Source of the DNA: a bacterium CG10_46_32
GTDB taxonomy: Bacteria > Patescibacteriota > Patescibacteriia > UBA2169
Reading direction: 5' to 3'
Length of the DNA stretch: 64,000 nt
Assembly (NCBI GenBank): GCA_001889965.1
Contig: MOEI01000012.1
Coordinates: 1,170-65,169, forward strand
In this document: in pieces, positions 11,656 through 53,624 of the stretch
Position numbering within the stretch: the first letter of the stretch is position 1
Layout of the letters: the number at the start of each line of letters is the position of its first letter
The notes under the pieces: model-generated
The model's database searches: none
What the model was told of the DNA's origin: nothing
The model's input: only the letters and a program-made list of their open reading frames with translations
Program-made: the position numbers and the translations under genes

Positions 11656-12906
11656 TTAACTCCCCCCCACCTCCCTAAAAACCAAATCCATCTCCCCCAC
11701 CTCCGGATCTACCATAAAAGCTCTACGCGAGAATCCAGTCAAATTCAAAGTAGCGAGCGAACGCACACGAGAAAGCGCAACATATCCCATGCCATGGCCA
11801 AAGGTATTACCCAAATTAATCTCTGCAGTGTCTAATGTCATGCCCTGCGATTTATGAATGGTAATTGCCCAGGCTAACCTAAGAGGCACTTGGAATATAG
11901 AGGCAATAACAGAACTATCATGTTCCAAAGACCAGCTAGAAAACCCAACACTAATTCGCCTGCCGCTTTTTAATCTAACAACAGGGAGCAGTACACCTGC
12001 ATCATCATAAAAATCTACCACAACTCCCATGGTGCCGTTTACATAGCCATGTTCAAAATTATTTTTAGTAAACATCACCACAGCGCCAATCTTTAGCACT
12101 AACTCCTGTGGAATTTTGTTATACTCTTTTTTAAGTTGCAGAACCGCATCCCGCTTACCTTTGGAACGCATAGGATACACCTCTGCGTCTTGTTCTAGCT
12201 TTTCTAGCTCAAGCTCATTTACTGCATCTGCATCTTTGTTACGCGAAAATAATTTGGTTGTGTAGTTCTCTCCAGAAACAGGTTGCTTAAATCGCGATTG
12301 CAAAATCTCTTCTGTTTCGTAAGATGTTTTGCTCTGACGAATATCATTGAGTACTTGAGAGAATAAATCATCAGTATGCCTAAACTGCTCATCTAAATAA
12401 CAAACCCGCAGTTTTGCTTTGTTCCAGGATTCAGAGTGATACGCCAAAATCGGTTTTGTTTTATCGGTGCGAACCGGTGGCAGCTGAAAAAAATCACCGC
12501 ACAGAACAACTTGCAAACCACCAAAAGGTTGCGCGCTCCGCTTGACTGCTTTACATACCTCATCAACCAACTCTAAGGTACGCGCATCAACCATAGAAAT
12601 CTCATCAATAATCAAAACAGCGCATGCCAAAAACCTAGCTTGCATATGTTTGTTATCAGCAAGCTTTTGCAAATCACGGCCAGAGAGCTCCTCTTTTATA
12701 CCAATACCAGCCCACGAATGGAGGGTGGTGCCATCAATATGTGTTGCAGCAATACCCGTAGAGGCAGTTACTGCGTGCTTTTTGTTATTCTTTTTAAGGT
12801 ATTCAATAAACTCACGCAAAATATATGTCTTACCACTGCCGGCTGGGCCAGTGAGAAAAACATTGTTGCCTGATTTGAGTATGTTGAGCGCTTTTTTTTG
12901 GTCCAT
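11656..12906 (-). CDS. PIF1/RecD-like 5'-3' DNA helicase
   Basis: Walker A TGPAGSGKT, DEISMV Walker B, C-terminal ITIHKSQGMTLD motif of the RecD/Pif1/TraA family; start taken at the internal MDQKK. Confidence 0.8.
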   Translation of the reverse strand: MDQKKALNILKSGNNVFLTGPAGSGKTYILREFIEYLKKNNKKHAVTASTGIAATHIDGTTLHSWAGIGIKEELSGRDLQKLADNKHMQARFLACAVLIIDEISMVDARTLELVDEVCKAVKRSAQPFGGLQVVLCGDFFQLPPVRTDKTKPILAYHSESWNKAKLRVCYLDEQFRHTDDLFSQVLNDIRQSKTSYETEEILQSRFKQPVSGENYTTKLFSRNKDADAVNELELEKLEQDAEVYPMRSKGKRDAVLQLKKEYNKIPQELVLKIGAVVMFTKNNFEHGYVNGTMGVVVDFYDDAGVLLPVVRLKSGRRISVGFSSWSLEHDSSVIASIFQVPLRLAWAITIHKSQGMTLDTAEINLGNTFGHGMGYVALSRVRSLATLNLTGFSRRAFMVDPEVGEMDLVFREVGGS

Positions 12907-12980
12907 GTGTATGTACGGTACGTTACTTACATTAAAAGAGCAATACAAAAAAACAACAGGCTACTTGAGTGAACCGTTGC

Positions 12981-13232
12981 CTAATACACTCCCTGCCGAT
13001 GCCCAAACTCAATCACCACAACCAATAGCTCGTTCTTATAAATCTTGTATACAATCCGGTATGGCCATACCCGAAAAGAATATTGCCCCTCGCGTTTTCC
13101 GTGAAGTTTTTTGCCCAAAAAAGGATTGGCTTCAATCTCGCCAAGAATTTGCAATACACGCATCTGGTACTGCTTTGGCAGTTTATGTATGTTTTTTTGC
13201 GCCCTTGGTTCTACGCGCAGTTTGAACACCAT
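12981..13232 (-). CDS. RelE/ParE-family toxin
   Basis: 83-aa ORF MVFKLRVEPRAQKNIHKL... typical of RelE/ParE; downstream of a Phd/YefM gene. Confidence 0.65.
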   Translation of the reverse strand: MVFKLRVEPRAQKNIHKLPKQYQMRVLQILGEIEANPFLGKKLHGKREGQYSFRVWPYRIVYKIYKNELLVVVIEFGHRQGVY

Positions 13233-13545
13233 ATTTTTTTGCAGATTTATCGGCTACAACAAAACCAAAATCTTTTTTAAGATCATCAAGCGTTGCCCAT
13301 TTTTTATACTCACCGCTTTTAACAGCCTTGTCAGTTTCGGCAACATGTTTATCTAAGTCTGGAAAATCTCGCAGCACCTCCAATGTTTCCGCCCAAGACT
13401 CAAATTCTTCGGCGGACATTAACACCGCCTTAGGACGGCCGTTTTCCGTGAGTGTGTAGTACCTACCCGGTTTTTGCACGTCACGAGTGATGGTAAAAAT
13501 ATCTTTACGCGCCTGGGTTGTAGAGATAGTATGTTGAGTATTCAT
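13183..13545 (-). CDS. Phd/YefM-family antitoxin
   Basis: ISTTQARKDIFTITRDVQKPGRYYTLTENGRPKAVLMSAEEFESWAETLEVL matches the Phd/YefM core. The 3' end overlaps the toxin start by 50 nt in another frame, so the true C-terminus is uncertain. Confidence 0.75.
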   Translation of the reverse strand: MNTQHTISTTQARKDIFTITRDVQKPGRYYTLTENGRPKAVLMSAEEFESWAETLEVLRDFPDLDKHVAETDKAVKSGEYKKWATLDDLKKDFGFVVADKSAKKYGVQTARRTKGAKKHT

Positions 13546-22311: not shown

Positions 22312-23445
22312 ATGCCCATCGACACTATCCAGCAGATCGTTAAAACGATTCAAGCGAAAAAACATATTTTAGTCACCACCAGAGCGAACCCAAGCGGCGA
22401 TGCCGTTGCCAGTGCTCTGGCTTTTTGTTTAATCGCAAAACGCATGGGAAAACGCGTGTCCATTGCAATTGATTGCCAAGAATTTGGCCTGCCCGGACAT
22501 CTGCATTTTTTACCGGGGTACGATTCCATAGAAACAATGCTTGCAAAACAATCCGAGATGGTTCTTGAGTTTGATTTGAACCACGATTCCATCCGCGGAC
22601 TAACCTACGAGGTGCGGAATAACAAACTCATGATTCGCATCTTTCCAACTCAAACAGGCATCACCTTAAGCGCGCCGCGCGCGCGCGAAGCACACTACCC
22701 GTACGATTTAATAGCAGTGGTTGATGCGTGTGATTTGGAATCTTTGGGAAGCATATACGAAGAGCACACGGAATTCTTTTACCATACCCCAATCATCAAC
22801 ATCGACCACCAACCCGAAAACGAATACTTTGGAGAACTTAACTTGGTTGAGATGACCGCAGTAGCCACCACGGAAATTTTGTTCTCGCTTGCGGAAAAGC
22901 TTGCATCCAATCCTTTGGATGCGCCGCTTGCCACGTGCTTACTTGCGGGAATCATCCACGAGAGCCGGAGCTTCCAAACTCAAAACATTACCCCACACAC
23001 CTTGGCGATTGCGAGCGAGCTTATGACCATGGGCGCGGACCGATCGCAAATCATCCAAAATCTTTTTTACAACAAACCAATATCCGCGCTCCAATTGTGG
23101 GGCCGTTTGCTTGCGAACATGGAAACAAGCGACAAACCAAGCATGGCATGGGCAGTGGTTACGCAGGAAGATTTTGAGCACACACATACCAATGAACATG
23201 ATTTGGTAAGCCTGCTTGATGACTTGCTCCAGCACGCACCCCAAACTGACGTGGTTGCCATTCTCTACCCGAGCCAAGATGCGTGGAAAGCTATTGTGCA
23301 CACGCACAAACCATCTATTGACCTGCGACACGCATTAGGAAGACTAGAACCTTCCGGAAGCAGGAAACTGGTAACACTGGAACTTATGGTCCGATCCGCA
23401 CATGAGGCCACTGAAATCATCAAACAATCTCTGTTGCAAAATTGA
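22312..23445 (+). CDS. DHH-family phosphoesterase (second NrnA-like paralogue)
   Basis: DHH-family layout (…NPSGDAVAS…, DHQPEN); C-terminal DHHA1-like region. Confidence 0.55.
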   Translation: MPIDTIQQIVKTIQAKKHILVTTRANPSGDAVASALAFCLIAKRMGKRVSIAIDCQEFGLPGHLHFLPGYDSIETMLAKQSEMVLEFDLNHDSIRGLTYEVRNNKLMIRIFPTQTGITLSAPRAREAHYPYDLIAVVDACDLESLGSIYEEHTEFFYHTPIINIDHQPENEYFGELNLVEMTAVATTEILFSLAEKLASNPLDAPLATCLLAGIIHESRSFQTQNITPHTLAIASELMTMGADRSQIIQNLFYNKPISALQLWGRLLANMETSDKPSMAWAVVTQEDFEHTHTNEHDLVSLLDDLLQHAPQTDVVAILYPSQDAWKAIVHTHKPSIDLRHALGRLEPSGSRKLVTLELMVRSAHEATEIIKQSLLQN

Positions 23446-23476
23446 TTTTTGAGCATAAGTGCGCTATGGTTTGATT

Positions 23477-23552
23477 GGGCCCGTAGCTCAGGGGTTAGAG
23501 CACCACTCTTATAAGGTGGCCGTCGGTGGTTCGATTCCACCCGGGCCTACCA
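23477..23552 (+). tRNA. tRNA-Ile (anticodon UAU), 76 nt with encoded CCA
   Basis: Cloverleaf: acceptor gggcccg/cgggcct, D-arm gctc/gagc, anticodon stem ccact/ggtgg with loop cttataa (U33, UAU, A37), T-arm ggtgg-ttcgatt-ccacc. Confidence 0.7.
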
Positions 23553-23672
23553 CGTCTTAGTCGGATTACAGTCTCCGTATCCGAGCAAAGCTCGGCTACT
23601 CCGGCTTCCATCCGCCTACTCCTTTCAGATTTTCTGTTAACTGAGCAATAGCTCAGCCCAACAGAAAATCTG
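23553..23672 (-). repeat. tRNA-abutting structured element, copy C (minus orientation)
   Basis: Reverse complement aligns with 50161-50300 and 53405-53549 (agattttct-hairpin-agaaaatct; AGGAGTAGGCGGATGGA; ccgagc-tttg-ctcgg; GATACG; CCGACTAAGACG). Its 3' end abuts the 3' end of tRNA-Ile with 0 nt between. Confidence 0.5.
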
Positions 23673-23703
23673 TGAACGGCCCAAGAAAAAATCTAAAAAA
23701 TAC

Positions 23704-27241: not shown

Positions 27242-29218
27242 CTAGCGAACAATAGAATCAACTAATATAGTAAACAGGAGTCTAGGCTCGCCGCGGCTTT
27301 CTTTGAGGCTGCGGTCCAAGCGAGCAAGCGCATGGTACGTGGCCACAAGGCGCGCGATAGTAAACCGTGTTGCTTGCTTCCGAGTTTTTTGAACCACAAA
27401 CGGATTCAGCTTAAGCTGCGAGGCAAGGGATGCATCAGACCCTTCGGCCCCGTGCAATGCAAGCAGTAATCGGGTCTGCCTAATAATCATTCCCAAAAAC
27501 TGCTGAGGCGCTTCACTTGCTTCAAGTTGTGCATCCACCAAACTAAGCGCGGTTTTTTTGTCGCCACTCGAAAGCGCGTCCACAAACTTCCAAATATTCT
27601 CTTGGCTTCCTGCGTGCACCATAGTGCGCACCATTTGTTCGGTAATGGGATTCTTTCCTGCGGCCGCGAGCTTGGCAACCTCGTTGCGCGCCCGCCACAC
27701 GTCCGCGCCAATCATGCTACCAAGCAGCGCGCTAGCGCGAGGCTCAATTGTAGCATGCAGCTCTTGTGCATACTTCTGGATTCTATCGGGCATTTCAGAT
27801 TCAGAAGGCTGGGCAAACTCTTTGGAGTATTGCTCCTTTGCAAGCCGAGACACAAGCTTTAAACGCTTGTCGCACGCGCCGGCGTGGAACACAATGAGCG
27901 TGGTGTCTACTGAAAGCTCATGAGTATCCAAAAAATCCGTAAGTCCGTCGCGGATGTCCTTGTCTTCTAAAACCCCTTTTGCAACAACTAATTTTTTGGA
28001 GCTAAACAATCCTCCACCTGTCAAAAACGCAGCAAGCTGTTCCCAGCTTCCCTCAGATGCTTCAAACAACTCAACCATGCCGCCTGATTGCGCATGCTTT
28101 TTGTTGAACTGGTCGGTTAATTTTTCCAGGTATTGACGCGACGAGTACGTGTCTTCCCCGTGAATCAAAATAAGCATGCGCCTTCCAATTTGTTTTTGAA
28201 TGGTTAAACTTCTGCAATGCACCAAAACCCCCAAATACGATTGCAAAGATTGATTAAATGATTCTGTCCCAATAAAACCATGCCGCAACTGCTCCTTTTT
28301 GACGCGCATCTTCTTGATAATCCTGTGCTTCGTTTTGGTGCGGATAACGCGATAGTGCGGAAGCGCGACATATCCCAAAAAATCAATCCCCTGATTAATT
28401 TTACGCACGAAAACAGTATCGTCATGAATCTCCAGTTTTAAGTTTTGATCCAAGAATAGCCTAGCACGCGCCGCGCTATCTTTCAAATAATCAGGGTCTC
28501 GGTGCAACATCACAAAATCATCACAATACCTGACATAATACTTTTGGCATAACGAATGCTTGACGTATTGGTCTAATTCATTTAAATAAACGTTTGCAAA
28601 CAACTGACTTGTTACATTGCCCAAGGGAATCCCTTTTCCGTGCACTATTGAAAAACTGCCTATGATATCCCCAATAAGACGCAATGCGGCATCATCCTGA
28701 ATAGTTTTTTGCATAATCCCGCGCAACACGCCGTGGTCAACCGTATCAAAAAACTTTTTAATATCACAAGTAAGCGCGTACGCGGTTTTGGTAAAATTAT
28801 CAGTTGCCTTGCGCGCGAACCGCTCAAGGCGGCTTACTCCCTTGTGCGTCCCCTTGCCAATCCTGCACGAATACGAATCAAAAATAAAATGCGGATCAAA
28901 CTCATGGTATAGTACCCTAAACACTGCCTGGTGCATAAGCCTGTCCCGCACATCGGCTTTATGTATGTGCCTTAATTTCGGATCGCGTACATAAAATGAA
29001 CTATACGGCCCATGCGCATAGCGCCCCGTCCGAAGGTCGTCACGCAAGCCAAATAGAGCATCCTCAAGCGCAAACTCAAATTCCCGCACATCTTGCTTTT
29101 TCCGCTTGCCTCGCCTAAACTCATACCATGCGGAGAAAAGATTCTCCAGGCTTATAATCCTCTCAAACAAGCTATTAACACCAGTATGCCCGCCCCCCCC
29201 CCAACGGAGTGGTTCCAA
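27242..29218 (-). CDS. DGR-type reverse transcriptase (28178-29218) fused in frame to a full-length DNA polymerase III delta subunit HolA homologue (27242-28177)
   Basis: RT part: NLFSAWYEFRRGKR...KADVRDRLMHQA...SYSCRIGKGTH...IPLGNVTSQL...YVRYCDDFVM (DGR Brt-like motifs including LGNxTSQ and YxDD). From MLILIHGEDTY onward it is HolA-like (…FVDALSSGDKKTALSLVDAQL…). There is no stop codon between the two parts. The paralogous RT at 58243-59268 ends at the equivalent position. Confidence 0.75.
   Translation of the reverse strand: MEPLRWGGGGHTGVNSLFERIISLENLFSAWYEFRRGKRKKQDVREFEFALEDALFGLRDDLRTGRYAHGPYSSFYVRDPKLRHIHKADVRDRLMHQAVFRVLYHEFDPHFIFDSYSCRIGKGTHKGVSRLERFARKATDNFTKTAYALTCDIKKFFDTVDHGVLRGIMQKTIQDDAALRLIGDIIGSFSIVHGKGIPLGNVTSQLFANVYLNELDQYVKHSLCQKYYVRYCDDFVMLHRDPDYLKDSAARARLFLDQNLKLEIHDDTVFVRKINQGIDFLGYVALPHYRVIRTKTKHRIIKKMRVKKEQLRHGFIGTESFNQSLQSYLGVLVHCRSLTIQKQIGRRMLILIHGEDTYSSRQYLEKLTDQFNKKHAQSGGMVELFEASEGSWEQLAAFLTGGGLFSSKKLVVAKGVLEDKDIRDGLTDFLDTHELSVDTTLIVFHAGACDKRLKLVSRLAKEQYSKEFAQPSESEMPDRIQKYAQELHATIEPRASALLGSMIGADVWRARNEVAKLAAAGKNPITEQMVRTMVHAGSQENIWKFVDALSSGDKKTALSLVDAQLEASEAPQQFLGMIIRQTRLLLALHGAEGSDASLASQLKLNPFVVQKTRKQATRFTIARLVATYHALARLDRSLKESRGEPRLLFTILVDSIVR
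29193..29202. repeat. Poly(C)10 homopolymeric tract at the divergent avd/RT junction of DGR-1
   Basis: cgcccccccccc; sits in the RT 5' codons (WGGGG) and just upstream of the avd start. Confidence 0.9.
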
Positions 29219-29562
29219 TTGTCCATGCCATTACTCATGTGTACAAGGAATTGTACCAGCTTGGGAAAAAACTTCCAAAACAAGACCGATACGGCATGCA
29301 CCGGTGCATTACCGAAGTATGCCTCAAAAGCCTCAAGCTTGCGATAGAGGCGGCTTTGTCCGTGAAACAGGAAAAAGCGCCTATCCTAAAAAAACTGCGG
29401 GTGGAAATTGGCGTGCTTAAGCAATTGGTGCGCCTGCTCTATGAATTAAATCGTATCCCACAAAAGGCCTATTTCGGACTTGAACAACAACTCTGTGAAA
29501 TATCCAAAATGGCCGGTGGATGGAGCAAGTATGCTGATATGCACAAAACAAAAGGAGCATAA
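29208..29562 (+). CDS. avd: Avd-like accessory variability determinant of DGR-1, encoded on the strand opposite RT/TR/VR
   Basis: 117 aa, GTG start; LPKQDRYGMHRCITEVCLKSL ... CEISKMAGGWSKYADMHK parallels Bordetella bAvd (IPRKHGVAREMFLKCLL ... AEVGRILGSWIARVNRK). Confidence 0.65.
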
Positions 29563-29574
29563 TCGCTCCTTTTG
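29550..29574. promoter_or_regulatory. Hairpin immediately 3' (TR-RNA sense) of TR-1
   Basis: aaaaggagc-ataatc-gctcctttt overlapping the avd stop; position matches a TR-proximal priming or terminator structure. Confidence 0.35.
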
Positions 29575-29576
29575 CA

Positions 29577-29694
29577 GAAACTATCGCACGAGCACGCAGG
29601 TTCGCGTTGGCATTCTGCGGGTGGTTCCAGTTCAGGTTCAGCGCGCCGCCGTTCCAGTTCACGTTCGGCACATGGCCATCCGAATTGCGGGAAC
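29577..29694 (-). repeat. DGR-1 template repeat (TR)
   Basis: 118-bp copy of VR-1. On the minus strand the variable positions are A, and the translation is Asn-rich (NVNWNGGALNLNWNHPQNANAN). Confidence 0.85.
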
Positions 29695-29885
29695 TCGTGT
29701 AATGCGCGGCTTCATCCATTGCTCCGGCAACCTTTTACAAGGCCTCCTGTGTTTACCAATACTTTGTTGGCTGTGTTTTGAGTCTCCGCGAAAAGCGTAC
29801 ACTCACCAAAGCCGGGCACGTAGTTTCTTGAATATAGCAAATCGTTATCCCGTGGGACCGATTGTAGTAGCCATGTGTAATAATA

Positions 29886-29922
29886 CAAAAAAAGCCCCCG
29901 TCTGCGCAAGGCAAACGGGGGG
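29886..29922 (-). terminator. Intrinsic terminator after DGR-1 target gene
   Basis: gcccccgt...acgggggg hairpin plus A7 (U-run on the minus-strand transcript). Confidence 0.5.
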
Positions 29923-29956
29923 TATAGAGAGGGAAACAAGGGAGAAGGTACGAGGG

Positions 29957-30688
29957 TTAGGAAACTACCGCACGAGCACGCAGGCGCGCGCCGGCACCCT
30001 GCGGGTAGTGCCAGTGCAGGCTCAGCGCGCCGCCGAACCAGTCCACGCTCGGCACATGGCCATCCGAAACGCGGGAACCACTACAGAGTGTGATACTCTT
30101 TACATCCAGATGGCCCCCTTTCTCATCGTTGTACTTCAGCTCGTGGATGACGCGCTCCAGCGCGGTTTCGGTCGCGATCTCGCGCTCTGCTATGTCCTCG
30201 GCAGACAGGTTCTTGAGTTCCTCGTCTGCCTCCACCCGGTCGCGCACGCGGATTGCGTACGAGCCAGTCGCGGAGTCGCGTTCATTCCGGCTGATGGCGC
30301 TGTCCGTGTTATCCCAGTAGCACCTAACCGGAAAACGCTCCTCACACGCATGGAGGAGCCGAGAGAGCTGCAATCCGTGGGCGATTATGAGCACCTTGTT
30401 AAAACCGGGCTTTGGTGCCGGCAAGGCAAGGTGCGAGAAACCAACCCCCATGCCGAGTACGCGCCCGTAGAAGTCCTCCCACTCCGTCCGGACATCGCTC
30501 TGCAGAATCGCCTGCATGCGGTTTTTGTCTATGCGGCCGTTCTGGACCTGGGCCCAGAACTCTTTCATCTGTCCTGGCGTCGGCGGCCCCGATGAGCCTC
30601 CCTCTTGCTGAACACGCACATCTGCGCAGTCAGTAGCATGCAATGCGGTCATCGCACACCTCCTATGGAAATAGGTTAAAAAGTGCAT
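29957..30688 (-). CDS. DGR-1 target protein with C-terminal variable region (CLec/FGE-like ...VDWFGGALSLHWHYPQGAGARLRARAVVS)
   Basis: GC-rich ORF whose last ~39 codons are VR-1, ending at the stop codon; N-terminal start uncertain. Confidence 0.7.
   Translation of the reverse strand: MHFLTYFHRRCAMTALHATDCADVRVQQEGGSSGPPTPGQMKEFWAQVQNGRIDKNRMQAILQSDVRTEWEDFYGRVLGMGVGFSHLALPAPKPGFNKVLIIAHGLQLSRLLHACEERFPVRCYWDNTDSAISRNERDSATGSYAIRVRDRVEADEELKNLSAEDIAEREIATETALERVIHELKYNDEKGGHLDVKSITLCSGSRVSDGHVPSVDWFGGALSLHWHYPQGAGARLRARAVVS
29961..30078 (-). repeat. DGR-1 variable repeat (VR)
   Basis: Matches TR-1 with about 18 mismatches, all but one at TR adenines (TR A -> VR C/G/T). Confidence 0.85.
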
Positions 30689-50021: not shown

Positions 50022-50066
50022 CTTGATTTTTTGATGAGCTATGCTACTCTATCCTACGCGCACTAT

Positions 50067-50143
50067 GCGCCCTTAGCTCAGCGGATTAGAGCGACTGGCT
50101 TCGGACCAGTAGGTCGGGGGTTCGAATCCCTCAGGGCGCACCA
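50067..50143 (+). tRNA. tRNA-Arg (anticodon UCG), CCA encoded
   Basis: Acceptor gcgccct/agggcgc, anticodon stem actgg/ccagt with loop cttcgga, T-arm ggggg-ttcgaat-ccctc. Confidence 0.8.
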
Positions 50144-50160
50144 TCCCTTTTTTCTTTCGT

Positions 50161-50300
50161 TGAAGATTTTCTCTTGGGCCGACACGTCGTACTCGGCGCG
50201 GAGGTTAAGAGAAAATCTTAAGAGGAGTAGGCGGATGGAGGGCGAAGCGGATTCCGTGTACTCACGGGATACGCACAGCCCGCAATGCCGACTACGACGC
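50161..50300 (+). repeat. tRNA-abutting structured element, copy A (between tRNA-Arg and tRNA-Lys)
   Basis: gaagattttctctt-[gccga...tcggc hairpin]-aagagaaaatctt, AAGAGGAGTAGGCGGATGGAGGGCGAAGCGG, ccgtg-tact-cacgg hairpin, GATACG, CCGACTACGACG; ends 0-3 nt before the tRNA-Lys 5' end. Confidence 0.5.
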
Positions 50301-50376
50301 GCGCCGTTAGCTCAGCTGGTAGAGCAGCTCCCTCTTAAGGAGACGGTCGGGGGTTCGATCCCCTCACGGCGCACCA
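50301..50376 (+). tRNA. tRNA-Lys (anticodon CUU), CCA encoded
   Basis: Acceptor gcgccgt/acggcgc, anticodon loop ctcttaa, T-arm ggggg-ttcgatc-ccctc. Confidence 0.8.
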
Positions 50377-50378
50377 TT

Positions 50379-50411
50379 AAAAACATCCATCAGTTATTGA
50401 TGGATGTTTTT
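50379..50411. terminator. Bidirectional intrinsic terminator
   Basis: aaaaacatccatca-gttat-tgatggatgttttt. Confidence 0.7.
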
Positions 50412-50423
50412 AATGTTAAACTA

Positions 50424-50786
50424 TTACGCGGCGCGTGGTGTCGGCGGCAACGGCGAATGGTCGGGAACTACTGACTCACTGATATCAGGCGCTGCCTTGA
50501 GTGCGTCTTTAAGGGTCTTTCCCGCTTTGAACTTTGGGACAGTTACCGTTGGAATTTTAATACGTTCAGTTGGCTTTTGAGGGTTCACACCCATACGCGA
50601 CTCGCGTGTCCGCGCCACAAACGAACCAAAACCAGTAAGCACAGCTTCTTTACCAGCCTTCATGGAATCAATTACCACATGCACAAACGCATCCATTACA
50701 TCTTCTGCCTCTTTTCGCGAGACATTGGCACGGGACGCGATTTTTTCGAGTAGTTGATCTTTGTTGATTTTGTTTGGATTAGACAT
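50424..50786 (-). CDS. hup: DNA-binding protein HU with extended C-terminal tail
   Basis: …GFGSFVARTRESRMGVNPQKPTERIKIPTVTVPKFKAGKTLKDAL HU arm; start taken at the internal MSNPNK. Confidence 0.85.
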   Translation of the reverse strand: MSNPNKINKDQLLEKIASRANVSRKEAEDVMDAFVHVVIDSMKAGKEAVLTGFGSFVARTRESRMGVNPQKPTERIKIPTVTVPKFKAGKTLKDALKAAPDISESVVPDHSPLPPTPRAA

Positions 50787-51683: not shown

Positions 51684-53363
51684 ATGCTAGACTCGTATCA
51701 TATGAAATGGCTTCCTCCAATCGCACTCATTGCAATCTCCATTGCACTCTATGGCGCGACATTTTCAAGGACTATCTACCTCGAAGACAGCCCGGAATTT
51801 GTCGCGGCAAGCCACACACTATCAATACCTCACCCATCTGGATACCCAACCTACTTGATAACCACAAAACTCATTTCGCTGATTCCATTTTTACCTACTG
51901 AAGTTTCCCGAATCAACTTTGTTTCCGCACTGTGGACTATTGCTGCGGTAGTGCTTTTATATTTCGTACTGTTGCGATTATTCTCAAATAGGCTCATAGC
52001 GTTCTCACTCGCGTTCCTGTTTGCAATGAGCCCTATGGTTTGGCAACAAGCAACCTACGCGGAAGTATACTCCTTAAATACGTTCTTTTTTGTATTGCTC
52101 ATAGGGGCTGCTGCGTACTACTACACGCACAAAACCGACAAGCGGCTCTCTCTATTTTTCTTTATCTATGGCTTGAGTCTGACAAATCATTTTCTAGCGC
52201 TTGCGCTTGCCCCGCTCGTCGGAATATGGCTGCTGACAGAAAAGCCAATAATGAAAAACGCACGCTTCTATGGCAACGCTTTTCTATTCTTCCTCGCTGG
52301 CCTCGCGCCCTACCTCTATATCCCAATCCGAAACGCGGGGCGCCCTGCATTCTCCTGGTTTGGTGGAAGCGCGGAAAAAATCCTTACCTATAACATTGCT
52401 TATGGCTACCATGTATCCACAGCAACCATATCCTACTTCGCTGACGTATTTCACCAAATGCTCATAAGCTTTGGATGGTTTGGTGTGGTCGCGTTTCTCG
52501 CTGGCATCGGCGCACTCATCTACTGGAAACATCCCGGCCGCTGGCATATGCTTTCGTGCCTCGGGCTTCTGTCGATTGGATTAATAATTATGCTCACCAA
52601 CGGAAGGCCCTATAGTGAATTTGAAAGCCAATTTTACCAGACACTCTATGTGCCGTTCCTACTAGTGAGCCTCCTGCCAATTGGGTACCTCCTCCAAAAA
52701 ATGTCCAAAAGCCGCTATAAGCTTGTAATTTTCTACACATCGTTGCTTGCGATTCTGATCTGGCCTGCAACGGACATCGGAAATCGATTTTTAAATAATG
52801 ATCGGTCTGGGTATGTGCTCATGGAAAACTATACCAAAGGGTTGATGGAATCACTGCCCACTGATGCCACGCTTTTTGTGCACCACGACCATATTATAAA
52901 TGACACGCTGGTGTTCGGGCTCGCCTACCAGCGCTACGTTGCCGGAATCCGGCCGGATGTGAACCTCTACTCGCTGACGCCGGTATTCCCGCCACCGGAT
53001 GATTTCCAACTTGGTGAAGATCGGAAACAAAAATACACACTGCCGCTCAAGCAGTATCTCGACGAACAGTACGCGCCAGAAGCGGCGAGTGCCACATTTC
53101 CGCGGCCAGAGCACGGATTGCCCGCAACCGCGCCCCAAAACTACATTGCAGACAACCTCTATGTGCCGAGCGCAAACGACAACCTCTACCACCGATCATT
53201 GCTTGCCAAGTACTACTATGACCTTGCCATGCAATCTTACGCAAAAGGAAGCTTGAGCTCGGGCCAGCACTTCCTGATACAGGCAATTAATTATGATCCA
53301 GACCAATTCAGCGACTACTACTATCAAACTCTTTTTATGCGAAGCTACTACTTTGGGAATTGA
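51684..53363 (+). CDS. DUF2723/PMT-like transmembrane glycosyltransferase family protein
   Basis: YLEDSPEFVAASHTLSIPHPSGYPTY hallmark, about 11 TM segments, TPR-like C-terminus; start taken at the internal MLDSYH. Confidence 0.55.
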   Translation: MLDSYHMKWLPPIALIAISIALYGATFSRTIYLEDSPEFVAASHTLSIPHPSGYPTYLITTKLISLIPFLPTEVSRINFVSALWTIAAVVLLYFVLLRLFSNRLIAFSLAFLFAMSPMVWQQATYAEVYSLNTFFFVLLIGAAAYYYTHKTDKRLSLFFFIYGLSLTNHFLALALAPLVGIWLLTEKPIMKNARFYGNAFLFFLAGLAPYLYIPIRNAGRPAFSWFGGSAEKILTYNIAYGYHVSTATISYFADVFHQMLISFGWFGVVAFLAGIGALIYWKHPGRWHMLSCLGLLSIGLIIMLTNGRPYSEFESQFYQTLYVPFLLVSLLPIGYLLQKMSKSRYKLVIFYTSLLAILIWPATDIGNRFLNNDRSGYVLMENYTKGLMESLPTDATLFVHHDHIINDTLVFGLAYQRYVAGIRPDVNLYSLTPVFPPPDDFQLGEDRKQKYTLPLKQYLDEQYAPEAASATFPRPEHGLPATAPQNYIADNLYVPSANDNLYHRSLLAKYYYDLAMQSYAKGSLSSGQHFLIQAINYDPDQFSDYYYQTLFMRSYYFGN

Positions 53364-53404
53364 CTAGATGGCAAGATGATACTAGAATAGTCCTGTATTG
53401 TATT

Positions 53405-53549
53405 ACAGATTTTCTCTTCGCAACTCACTACTTGGGCCGAGGTACTCCGAGGTTAAGGAGTGAGTTGAAGAGGAGTAGGCGAGCGAAAGGCGAAGCGGCC
53501 TCCGAGTAATCTCGGATGACGCGTAGCCTGAAGCACGACTACGACGAGT
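53405..53549 (+). repeat. tRNA-abutting structured element, copy B (upstream of tRNA-Gly)
   Basis: acagattttctctt, GAAGAGGAGTAGGCGAGCGAAAGGCGAAGCGG, ccgag-taat-ctcgg hairpin (compensatory to copy A ccgtg/cacgg), GATGACG, CACGACTACGACG; ends 1 nt before the tRNA-Gly 5' end. Confidence 0.5.
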
Positions 53550-53624
53550 GCGGGTATCGTATAATGGTTATTATGTCAGGTTTCCAACCTGAAAATGGGG
53601 GTTCGATTCCCCCTACCCGCTCCA
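53550..53624 (+). tRNA. tRNA-Gly (anticodon UCC), CCA encoded
   Basis: Acceptor gcgggta/tacccgc, anticodon stem tcagg/cctga with loop tttccaa, T-arm ggggg-ttcgatt-ccccc. Confidence 0.8.

Follow-up and report, generated by a model that had tools for sequence, protein, structure and literature searches.

Retrotransposons that target tRNA genes are known from compact eukaryotic genomes, among them Ty3 of yeast, TRE5 and TRE3 of Dictyostelium, and DGLT-A, and Ty3 inserts 1–4 nt from the tRNA transcription start. Bacteria of the candidate phyla radiation (CPR)/Patescibacteria have tiny, gene-dense genomes with few recognized mobile elements. Here, we analyzed a 64,000-nucleotide stretch of the CPR contig MOEI01000012.1 (hereafter the window; position 1 is its first letter), in which three copies of a structured element of ∼100–140 nt abut tRNA genes. 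Our data favor, at a probability of roughly 60%, the reading that these copies belong to a family of non-coding, RNA-structured mobile elements of Parcubacteria-type CPR bacteria that lodge at tRNA edges, in the tRNA leaders, and are removed by RNase P.

Two described systems come close in different ways: IStrons are selfish insertions rendered harmless by RNA processing (PMC4227781), and group I introns occur in the tRNA genes of Patescibacteria (PMC13011429). Literature searches yielded no description of the element reported here, a previously undescribed structured RNA element of CPR/Parcubacteria-type bacteria.

Three copies of a two-hairpin element at tRNA boundaries

The original prediction, made from the window sequence alone, described three copies of a structured element, each ending 0–3 nt from a tRNA gene. 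ARAGORN and Rfam called four tRNA genes in the window, all on the forward strand and all encoding CCA, and a covariance model built from 23 copies of the element placed all three predicted copies with 100–117 bits each. The window holds exactly these three; with filters off, nothing in the rest of the 64 kb exceeded 16 bits. The element consists, in consensus order, of a 5' hairpin (P1), a linker, and a long rod (P2) whose final GACG forms the last four bases of the element. The features are as follows.

23477–23552, forward: tRNA-Ile(UAU), whose 3' end is abutted by copy 3
23553–23672, reverse: copy 3, on the strand opposite tRNA-Ile (covariance model 117 bits; fold z −6.8)
23626–23672 and 23553–23623, reverse: P1 and P2 of copy 3
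23677–23694, reverse: leftover 5' fragment AGATTTTTTCTTGGGCCG, from the P1 of another copy, 4 nt upstream of copy 3
50067–50143, forward: tRNA-Arg(UCG), first gene of the Arg-Lys operon
50144–50162, forward: T-rich 19-nt stretch TCCCTTTTTTCTTTCGTTG between the tRNA-Arg CCA end and P1 of copy 1
50163–50299, forward: copy 1, between tRNA-Arg and tRNA-Lys (covariance model 100.4 bits; fold z −7.2)
50163–50219, 50220–50222, and 50223–50299, forward: P1 hairpin, linker AAG, and P2 rod of copy 1, with GACG at the end
50301–50376, forward: tRNA-Lys(CUU), abutted by copy 1
53360–53388, forward: resident tRNA-Gly promoter of sigma-70 type, TTGACT-17-TAGAAT
53405–53420, forward: leftover 5' fragment ACAGATTTTCTCTTCG, from the 5' strand of P1 of a different copy, immediately preceding copy 2
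53421–53546, forward: copy 2, upstream of tRNA-Gly (covariance model 111.7 bits; fold z −5.1)
53421–53467 and 53471–53546, forward: P1 and P2 of copy 2, joined by linker AAG
53550–53624, forward: tRNA-Gly(UCC), abutted by copy 2

By these coordinates, copy 1 ends 1 nt from tRNA-Lys +1 (a single c at 50300), copy 2 ends 3 nt from tRNA-Gly +1 (spacer AGT, 53547–53549), and the terminal GACG of copy 3, which is antisense, lies 0 nt from the tRNA-Ile CCA end, so that the predicted spacing holds. On its own strand, copy 3 is followed by UGGU and then by the complement of the tRNA-Ile acceptor stem. The copies align over ∼125 columns with invariant blocks and are mutually 54–60% identical. Compared with shuffled sequence, the window gave 4 matches to AGGAGTAGGCG with ≤1 mismatch against 0.48 expected (3 exact, all within the copies) and 6 matches to CGACTAMGACG against 0.71 expected, and the copies had fold z-scores of −5 to −7. 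This motif excess and these z-scores exclude chance.

P1 comprises ∼20 bp with a variable tip, and an invariant cUUGGGC/GUUAAg module, which contains two G·U pairs, occupies the middle of P1 in most lineages; P1 is plain in two loci from other genomes, Komeilibacteria L003 and Parcubacteria L146. The linker measures 2–3 nt and is mostly GAA. The base of P2 reads 5'-AGGA-NNNN...N'N'N'N'-GACG-3', and the rod runs from AGGA through 4 covarying bp (GUAG/CUAC, AGAG/CUCU, AAAG/CUUU, or AGGG/CCCU), bulges, 5 bp, a GNA/GMAR loop, 4 bp, a GRA/RNA loop, and 3 bp to a variable hairpin, with three purine-rich internal loops of the GNA/GNA type. AGGA and GACG can pair as G·A/A·G around one G-C pair. The purine-rich block of the original prediction is present but not separate, being the 5' strand of the P2 rod, with the terminal CGACUACGACG as its 3' strand. 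Its outer inverted repeat had to be redrawn in copy 2, where AGATTTTCT (53405–53420) is the leftover fragment of another copy and not a stem arm; this fragment is the same in sequence as the 5' strand of P1 in copies 1 and 3 and lacks a 3' partner, and the true outer stem of copy 2 is CAACTCACT/AGTGAGTTG.

The compensatory hairpins quoted earlier were correct, and the argument from stem covariation to a functional RNA is upheld by strong covariation that places the structure under selection. The covariation was seen with RNAalifold as well. In an alignment of 40 copies, 96.1% of cells were paired compared with 71.9% in shuffles, changes on both sides were seen in 35 of 40 pairs, and the covariation score was 0.657 compared with 0.20 for shuffled alignments and 0.06–0.10 when partners were slid. 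G·U cells numbered 110 and A·C cells 14. The hairpin tips are UACU, GNRA, UUCG, or CUUG; the last three are RNA-type tetraloops and point to RNA as the selected form. The reverse strands of the three window copies scored 13–16 bits, far below the forward strands. Taken together, the covariation, the G·U excess, the tips, and the strand asymmetry of scores show selection on the single-stranded form of one strand, and these results demonstrate a strand-specific, two-hairpin fold. Across lineages, ∼45 nt are nearly invariant.

A kissing or pseudoknot interaction between the UACU tips and AGUA of the rod base was rejected for lack of covariation, since the L145 copies have a changed rod base (AAAG/CUUU) and keep UACU. 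A coding role was also rejected: AUG follows AGGAG in some copies, yet it is not conserved. The open reading frame (ORF) at 50031–50474 is spurious and runs across the tRNAs.

The Rfam scan proposed in the original prediction found no family matching the element. At the Rfam 15 gathering score, tRNAs alone passed over the window, and relaxing the threshold to E ≤ 10 for 300-nt stretches, or to E ≤ 5 for five other loci, yielded no consistent match over the element. The families covered included hammerhead, twister, twister-sister, pistol, hatchet, HDV, T-box, IS605-orfB/omega RNAs, and group II intron; the group II intron and retron RNA families in Rfam gave no match.

Family members, tRNA edges, and transcription context

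A first search, with an exact pattern in one genome per species, returned real copies confined to CPR-type metagenome-assembled genomes (MAGs), namely Komeilibacteria, Parcubacteria, and several “uncultured Gammaproteobacteria” bins, one of which shares CPR gene order; L007 and L010 from this genome scan were chance matches in Actinobacteria. A second, independent pattern, with the 3' end left free, was run on metagenomes, where matches to the looser pattern were mostly due to chance and only about a dozen loci were real. The covariance model found ∼45 copies among the fetched loci, so that further copies exist, as the original prediction had asked. Two window proteins are 100% identical to proteins of “bacterium CG10_46_32”, and since their nearest relatives are labeled Parcubacteria or Patescibacteria group, the window host is itself a CPR organism. 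A scan of viral contigs gave two chance matches only (∼15 bits, no tRNA), and phage and plasmid records gave no blastn match; a phage or plasmid origin was therefore rejected.

About 34 intact sense copies precede a tRNA, and the gap between GACG and tRNA +1 is 1 nt in ∼26, 3 nt in 4, 4 nt in 2, and 6 nt in 2. The tRNAs that follow include those for Ala, Arg, Asp, Gly, Ile, Leu, Lys, Pro, Ser, Thr, Trp, and Val; they can be of any identity and show no association with a functional gene set. Three copies lie antisense at a tRNA 3' end: the window Ile copy and the L014 Glu copy are 0 nt from CCA, and a degenerate L077 Leu copy is 0–2 nt away. One rule thus serves both orientations, with the P2 end a few nt before an acceptor-like stem. 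In L001 (GCA_964611875.1, 300–713, reverse strand), the element copy is followed by an apparent tRNA, missed by ARAGORN, that is interrupted by ∼380 nt and has the 5' acceptor strand GGGGAUG and the 3' end ...CAUCUCCACCA; the interruption is probably a group I intron as reported for Patescibacteria tRNAs (PMC13011429).

One copy, in L044 (8356–8485, reverse strand), is an exception to this rule. It lies in a type IV pilus operon, where it takes up the intergenic space that separates a pilO-like gene from an ORF for a small membrane protein, itself followed by pilB; the copy ends 2 nt short of the ATG of this ORF. The sole Shine-Dalgarno-like sequence available to the ORF is the AGGAG of the element itself, which the P2 rod would place ∼6 nt from the ATG.

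In most copies, −10-like hexamers (TAAAAT, TAGAAT, TATAAA) lie 2–20 nt upstream of P1, TAAAATGTATTCTA-CAA is common to several copies, and at the Ile locus of L146 and L148 P1 begins where transcription is expected to start, 7–9 nt past the resident −10 box. No terminator was found between element and tRNA. Since promoter boxes lie upstream and no terminator precedes the tRNA, sense copies are physically the 5' leader of the pre-tRNA, and the earlier view of the element as something other than a promoter or leader drew a false contrast. For the antisense window copy, no promoter was detected. The own promoter of the window tRNA-Ile (TTGATT-17-TATGGT, 23442–23470) ends 6 nt before +1, and the tRNA-Ile transcript may be nearly leaderless. 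A tRNA-Ile with anticodon UAU is rare among bacteria.

A −10-like box upstream of most copies, with no terminator before the tRNA, would also suit the gene for a trans-acting small RNA that lacks its own terminator and uses the adjacent tRNA, or the antisense tRNA-like structure, as an RNase P signal for 3'-processing. One rule would then cover both orientations, the P2 end lying ≤∼4–6 nt before an acceptor-like stem, and the 4 nt in the antisense copies are UGGU, the complement of ACCA. However, a trans-acting RNA does not usually occur in many divergent copies in one genome, copies are missing at these loci in close relatives, nothing tRNA-like lies downstream of the L044 copy, and the antisense window copy lacks a detected promoter; we consider a small-RNA gene improbable.

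The original prediction had also thought of a ribozyme-like RNA, which gained no support. A self-cleaving ribozyme that cuts its own 3' end after GACG would free the tRNA or, at L044, a nearly leaderless mRNA; it would account for an exact 3' boundary beside the most conserved nucleotides (AGGA...GACG) and for an L044 copy that ends just before the ATG with no Shine-Dalgarno sequence in between, and the size and the number of conserved positions fall within the ribozyme range. No ribozyme family in Rfam 15 matched even at E ≤ 10, however, and to our knowledge none of the known self-cleaving classes cleaves at its very 3' terminus. The gaps of 1–6 nt would still leave a leader for RNase P, and neither a pseudoknot nor a covarying tertiary contact was found, which makes self-cleavage very improbable.

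Occupancy of orthologous loci and possible mode of spread

The comparison of tRNA loci between relatives that the original prediction proposed revealed filled/empty polymorphism. The relatives share the gene order T2SSE, cNMP/GAF protein, [tRNA-Arg, tRNA-Lys], HU, YmdB, TMEM260-like, [tRNA-Gly] and, at the Ile locus, DHH, [tRNA-Ile], CCA enzyme. Occupancy at the first three sites is as follows.

Window: no element upstream of tRNA-Arg; element in the Arg-Lys spacer; element upstream of tRNA-Gly
L135: none upstream of tRNA-Arg; Arg-Lys spacer of 1 nt; none upstream of tRNA-Gly
L142: none upstream of tRNA-Arg; Arg-Lys spacer of 1 nt; element upstream of tRNA-Gly (gap 6)
L143: none upstream of tRNA-Arg; Arg-Lys spacer of 0 nt; contig stops short of tRNA-Gly
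L144: none upstream of tRNA-Arg; Arg-Lys spacer of 1 nt; none upstream of tRNA-Gly
L145: element at all three sites (upstream of tRNA-Arg, in the Arg-Lys spacer, upstream of tRNA-Gly)
L138: none upstream of tRNA-Gly; Arg and Arg-Lys sites outside coverage

The Arg-Lys spacer measures 157 nt in the window compared with 0–1 nt in L135, L142, L143, and L144; the extra block of 156 nt (50144–50299) starts exactly after CCA and ends exactly with GACG before the c, and this −1 c before tRNA-Lys is the same in three of the four empty sites (L135, L142, L144). Upstream of tRNA-Arg, an element is found in L145 only; the covariance model detected none before the window tRNA-Arg. The tRNA-Gly promoter is common to six genomes, with the element in the window, L142, and L145 and without it in L135, L138, and L144; it is thus kept in five relatives with or without the element, and the differences are confined to the leader. 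At the Ile locus, L146 and L148 carry a sense copy with a 1-nt gap, the window carries the antisense copy, and in L147 the tRNA is inverted and has no copy. The Arg, Arg-Lys, Gly, and Ile loci thus form a mosaic of presence and absence across eight or more relatives. Loci L140 and L141 contain no tRNA and were uninformative on occupancy. The “empty” tRNA-Gly leader of L144 (12590–12628) ends with GCGCGACTGACGTCGC, which resembles the element's terminal CGACUnnGACG; the likeness may be accidental or may mark where a copy was lost.

Relationships among copies do not follow the loci. The nearest match of each window copy lies in another genome and not at the same tRNA: the Gly copy is 80% identical to the L009 Ser copy, the Lys copy 74% identical to the L002 Asp copy, and the antisense Ile copy 76% identical to the L044 copy. 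At the Gly locus, the copies of the window, L142, and L145 share only 52–66% identity, and the three copies at the Ile locus represent three subtypes. Within L145, three neighboring copies are 80–95% identical, and two of these share an identical P2 rod, with compensatory changes distinguishing their P1 stems. The L013b and L014 copies of Komeilibacteria match completely over the element and ∼45 nt upstream of it, and their sequences diverge exactly after GACG. Tandem arrangements occur at several loci: in L009, L035, L077, L145, and twice in the window (53405–53420 and 23677–23694), an intact copy that abuts a tRNA is closely preceded by a 3'-truncated copy or a short P1 fragment. Element junctions are exact at the 3' side and ragged at the 5' side. 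An origin of the antisense copies by simple inversion of the tRNA was rejected, as it is contradicted by the UGGU between GACG and the stem and by the differing subtypes at the Ile locus. These results demonstrate a tRNA-edge rule, a gain/loss pattern of copies, and a mismatch between subtype and locus; the mosaic occupancy at orthologous tRNA loci, together with different subtypes at a given locus, supports the earlier suggestion of a small mobile element.

The same comparison bears on whether the element is instead a cis-acting leader that benefits the host by tuning tRNA output, being ancestral, precisely lost in some lineages, and homogenized by gene conversion; it might act, for example, by stabilizing the 5' end, by aiding or gating RNase P, or by binding a ligand or protein. 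Every sense copy lies in the leader and begins at or close to the point where transcription starts, ∼45 nt are near-invariant, and the invariant G·U pairs suggest a specific partner. The two L145 copies with identical P2 and compensatory P1 differences look gene-converted, and the filling of all three loci in L145, the most distant relative examined, fits ancestral presence. On the other hand, close relatives lack the element at the same tRNAs and keep the same promoters, and different subtypes occupy one orthologous locus. Antisense copies at CCA ends and the pilus-operon copy cannot serve as tRNA leaders, and gene conversion could not bring the element to a tRNA locus without homology on both sides. 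Nor is there a riboswitch-type expression platform, as neither a terminator nor an alternative pairing was found between the rod end and the tRNA 1 nt away. We regard a host-beneficial leader as rather unlikely; this reading, the small-RNA gene, and the ribozyme are each compatible with mobility.

As to known classes of mobile DNA, the element ends (CAAAUUU... and ...CUACGACG) are not inverted repeats as in miniature inverted-repeat transposable elements (MITEs), and the stems covary rather than keep their sequence as expected of a MITE. No left-flank motif as in IS200/IS605 or TnpB systems is conserved, the flanks differing (CACCA, CCTGT, and others), and no TnpA, TnpB, or IscB was found among the ∼46 window proteins scanned. 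The lack of terminal inverted repeats, target duplication, and a conserved flank motif argues against classic MITEs and relatives of IS200/IS605. An element that ends exactly at its 3' boundary with flanking DNA next has the geometry of a guide-RNA scaffold, like the omega RNA at the right end of IS200/IS605, in which the adjoining tRNA would be the guide for a TnpB-like protein encoded elsewhere. No target-adjacent 5'-flank motif is present at filled or empty sites, however, the scanned window proteins include no nuclease of this kind, Rfam gave no omega-RNA match, and a guide matching its own tRNA gene would target self. We hold a guide function to be extremely improbable.

We therefore return to mobile elements lodged in tRNA leaders, for which transcription, release by RNase P, and selfishness are what we infer. 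Sense transcription would start a few nt before P1, from an adjacent −10 box or the resident tRNA promoter, and the element would form the 5' leader of the pre-tRNA, with its last base 1 nt, or less often 3–6 nt, from tRNA +1. In general tRNA maturation, RNase P trims anything ahead of tRNA +1; a cut at +1 would thus yield a normal tRNA and set the element free as a separate RNA. As RNase P removes the sequence before +1, a tRNA leader would be a harmless landing site, and it is plausible that it serves as a refuge in a genome with almost no spare DNA. New copies would arise repeatedly at tRNA edges and occasionally on the other strand against a CCA end.

Several observations weigh against this reading. 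The L044 copy stands before an ORF instead of a tRNA. Terminal inverted repeats are lacking, filled sites compared with empty ones show no target-site duplication, and we saw no element-linked transposase, integrase, or reverse transcriptase. Conservation of ∼45 nt and of structure exceeds the need of purely selfish DNA and hints at an RNA-level function for the element or the host. Ancestral presence, precise losses, and gene conversion between paralogues could mimic part of the mosaic, and all comparisons rest on metagenome contigs and MAGs. Finally, the Komeilibacteria array L013 has a remnant between an intact copy and the tRNA, a misfit to a simple picture in which the newest copy lies next to the tRNA. 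In the same L013 contig (JBLYPW010000001.1, 2280–2590, reverse strand), the 5' half of tRNA-Ser(UGA) is duplicated, and a small ORF separates this extra half from the intact tRNA-Ser; by eye, the ORF resembles a GIY-YIG nuclease, and it may be an independent mobile insertion at this tRNA.

How a mobile element of this kind might move is suggested by its junctions, which match RNA landmarks, lying within 1–6 nt of tRNA +1, at the CCA end, or, for the Ile locus, at the start site. These are suggestive only of RNA-mediated mobility, and recognition of cloverleaf-like single-stranded DNA on either strand would fit as well. It is a tentative and rather doubtful possibility that the element spreads via its own RNA as a bacterial retroposon targeted to tRNA genes and similar to short interspersed nuclear elements (SINEs), or that it is a new class of ribozyme at tRNA boundaries. 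If it spreads via RNA, the inserted unit would be the leader RNA, from near the transcription start to the tRNA edge, and end-to-end template switching, or priming of a reverse transcriptase by the tRNA 3'-OH, would yield such junctions. Homologues of reverse transcriptase were absent from every fetched element-bearing locus. Spread via RNA, if true, would make this the first SINE-like retroposon of bacteria aimed at tRNA genes.

The element would constitute a new RNA family with a covariation signal among the clearest obtainable from a few dozen copies. It alters the leaders of many tRNAs, and probably their expression, and its repeats can break assemblies. The exact 3' junction suggests an enzyme or ribozyme able to find tRNA boundaries, a potential tool.

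Other features of the window and comparison with known systems

The window is a piece of bacterial chromosome that encodes HU, YmdB, UppS, IF-2, RecA, PolA, FtsK, and others. The stretch from 8 to 20 kb has 36–43% GC compared with ∼47% elsewhere, contains several ORFs without a Pfam match, and is possibly a foreign island; in this lower-GC stretch, a PIF1-like helicase (11656–12948) and a Phd/YefM antitoxin (13183–13545) are encoded on the reverse strand. A diversity-generating retroelement (DGR) occupies 27242–30652 on the reverse strand, with the following parts.

30652–29958, reverse: target gene
29961–30078, reverse: variable repeat, within the target gene
29577–29694: template repeat, AAC-rich, 118 nt, 86% identical, with differences at template adenines
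27242–29218, reverse: ORF whose N-terminal ∼345 aa are the DGR reverse transcriptase

The reverse transcriptase frame runs stop-free into holA (DNA polymerase III delta; TIGR01128, 202 bits, residues 350–653), which makes this ORF either a fusion of reverse transcriptase and HolA or a case of a lost stop. A separate HolA of 310–311 aa is found in L141, L146, L147, and L148; in L147, the corresponding site between polA and holA holds an RVT_1 fragment together with a BrnT/CopG pair. The window reverse transcriptase was rejected as the engine of the tRNA-edge element, since it is a DGR enzyme with its own template and variable repeats and no reverse transcriptase lies near the elements elsewhere.

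Among known systems, the bacterial non-autonomous repeats REP/REPIN, ERIC, Correia, IS200/IS605-derived PATEs, and integron attC, which fold as hairpins of RNA or single-stranded DNA, are, like the element, short, non-coding, multi-copy, and hairpin-forming; such REP-type repeats also conserve structure over sequence, and some are co-transcribed with their neighbors. In contrast to the element, none is known to be tied to the tRNA 5' edge, and the element differs from them by its RNA-type tetraloops, invariant G·U pairs, exact 3' and ragged 5' junctions, and lack of terminal inverted repeats and target duplication. Plant tRNA-snoRNA units, MALAT1-mascRNA, and the spacer RNAs of E. coli tRNA operons likewise contain a non-tRNA RNA with one end generated when RNase P or RNase Z cuts at a neighboring tRNA or tRNA-like structure; these dicistronic units are fixed, single-locus, and of known function, whereas the element is dispersed, polymorphic, and multi-copy.

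In IStrons and self-splicing introns (PMC4227781), an insertion is neutralized at the RNA level and RNA structure is selected, as proposed for the element; its removal would, however, be by host RNase P rather than by self-splicing, and it has neither a group I/II core nor an insertion sequence partner. The family would be a natural case in which RNase P processing may neutralize insertions, as splicing does for introns. The tRNA introns of Patescibacteria (PMC13011429) are structured, tRNA-associated RNA insertions in reduced genomes of the same host phylum, and L001 apparently holds both an element and an intron-type tRNA interruption. These introns lie inside the tRNA and self-splice, whereas the element lies outside, is much smaller, and lacks an intron core; leaders and RNase P are unmentioned in that paper (PMC13011429), and its few uses of “upstream” or “promoter” are in the methods.

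The tRNA-targeted retrotransposons of compact eukaryotic genomes share with the element repeated insertion a few to tens of nt from tRNA genes as safe havens. They are protein-coding, several kb long, and targeted via Pol III factors, whereas the element is 100–140 nt long, non-coding, bacterial, and defined by its RNA fold. If mobile as proposed, the family would be a bacterial counterpart to the strategy of yeast and Dictyostelium elements that use tRNA genes as safe havens.

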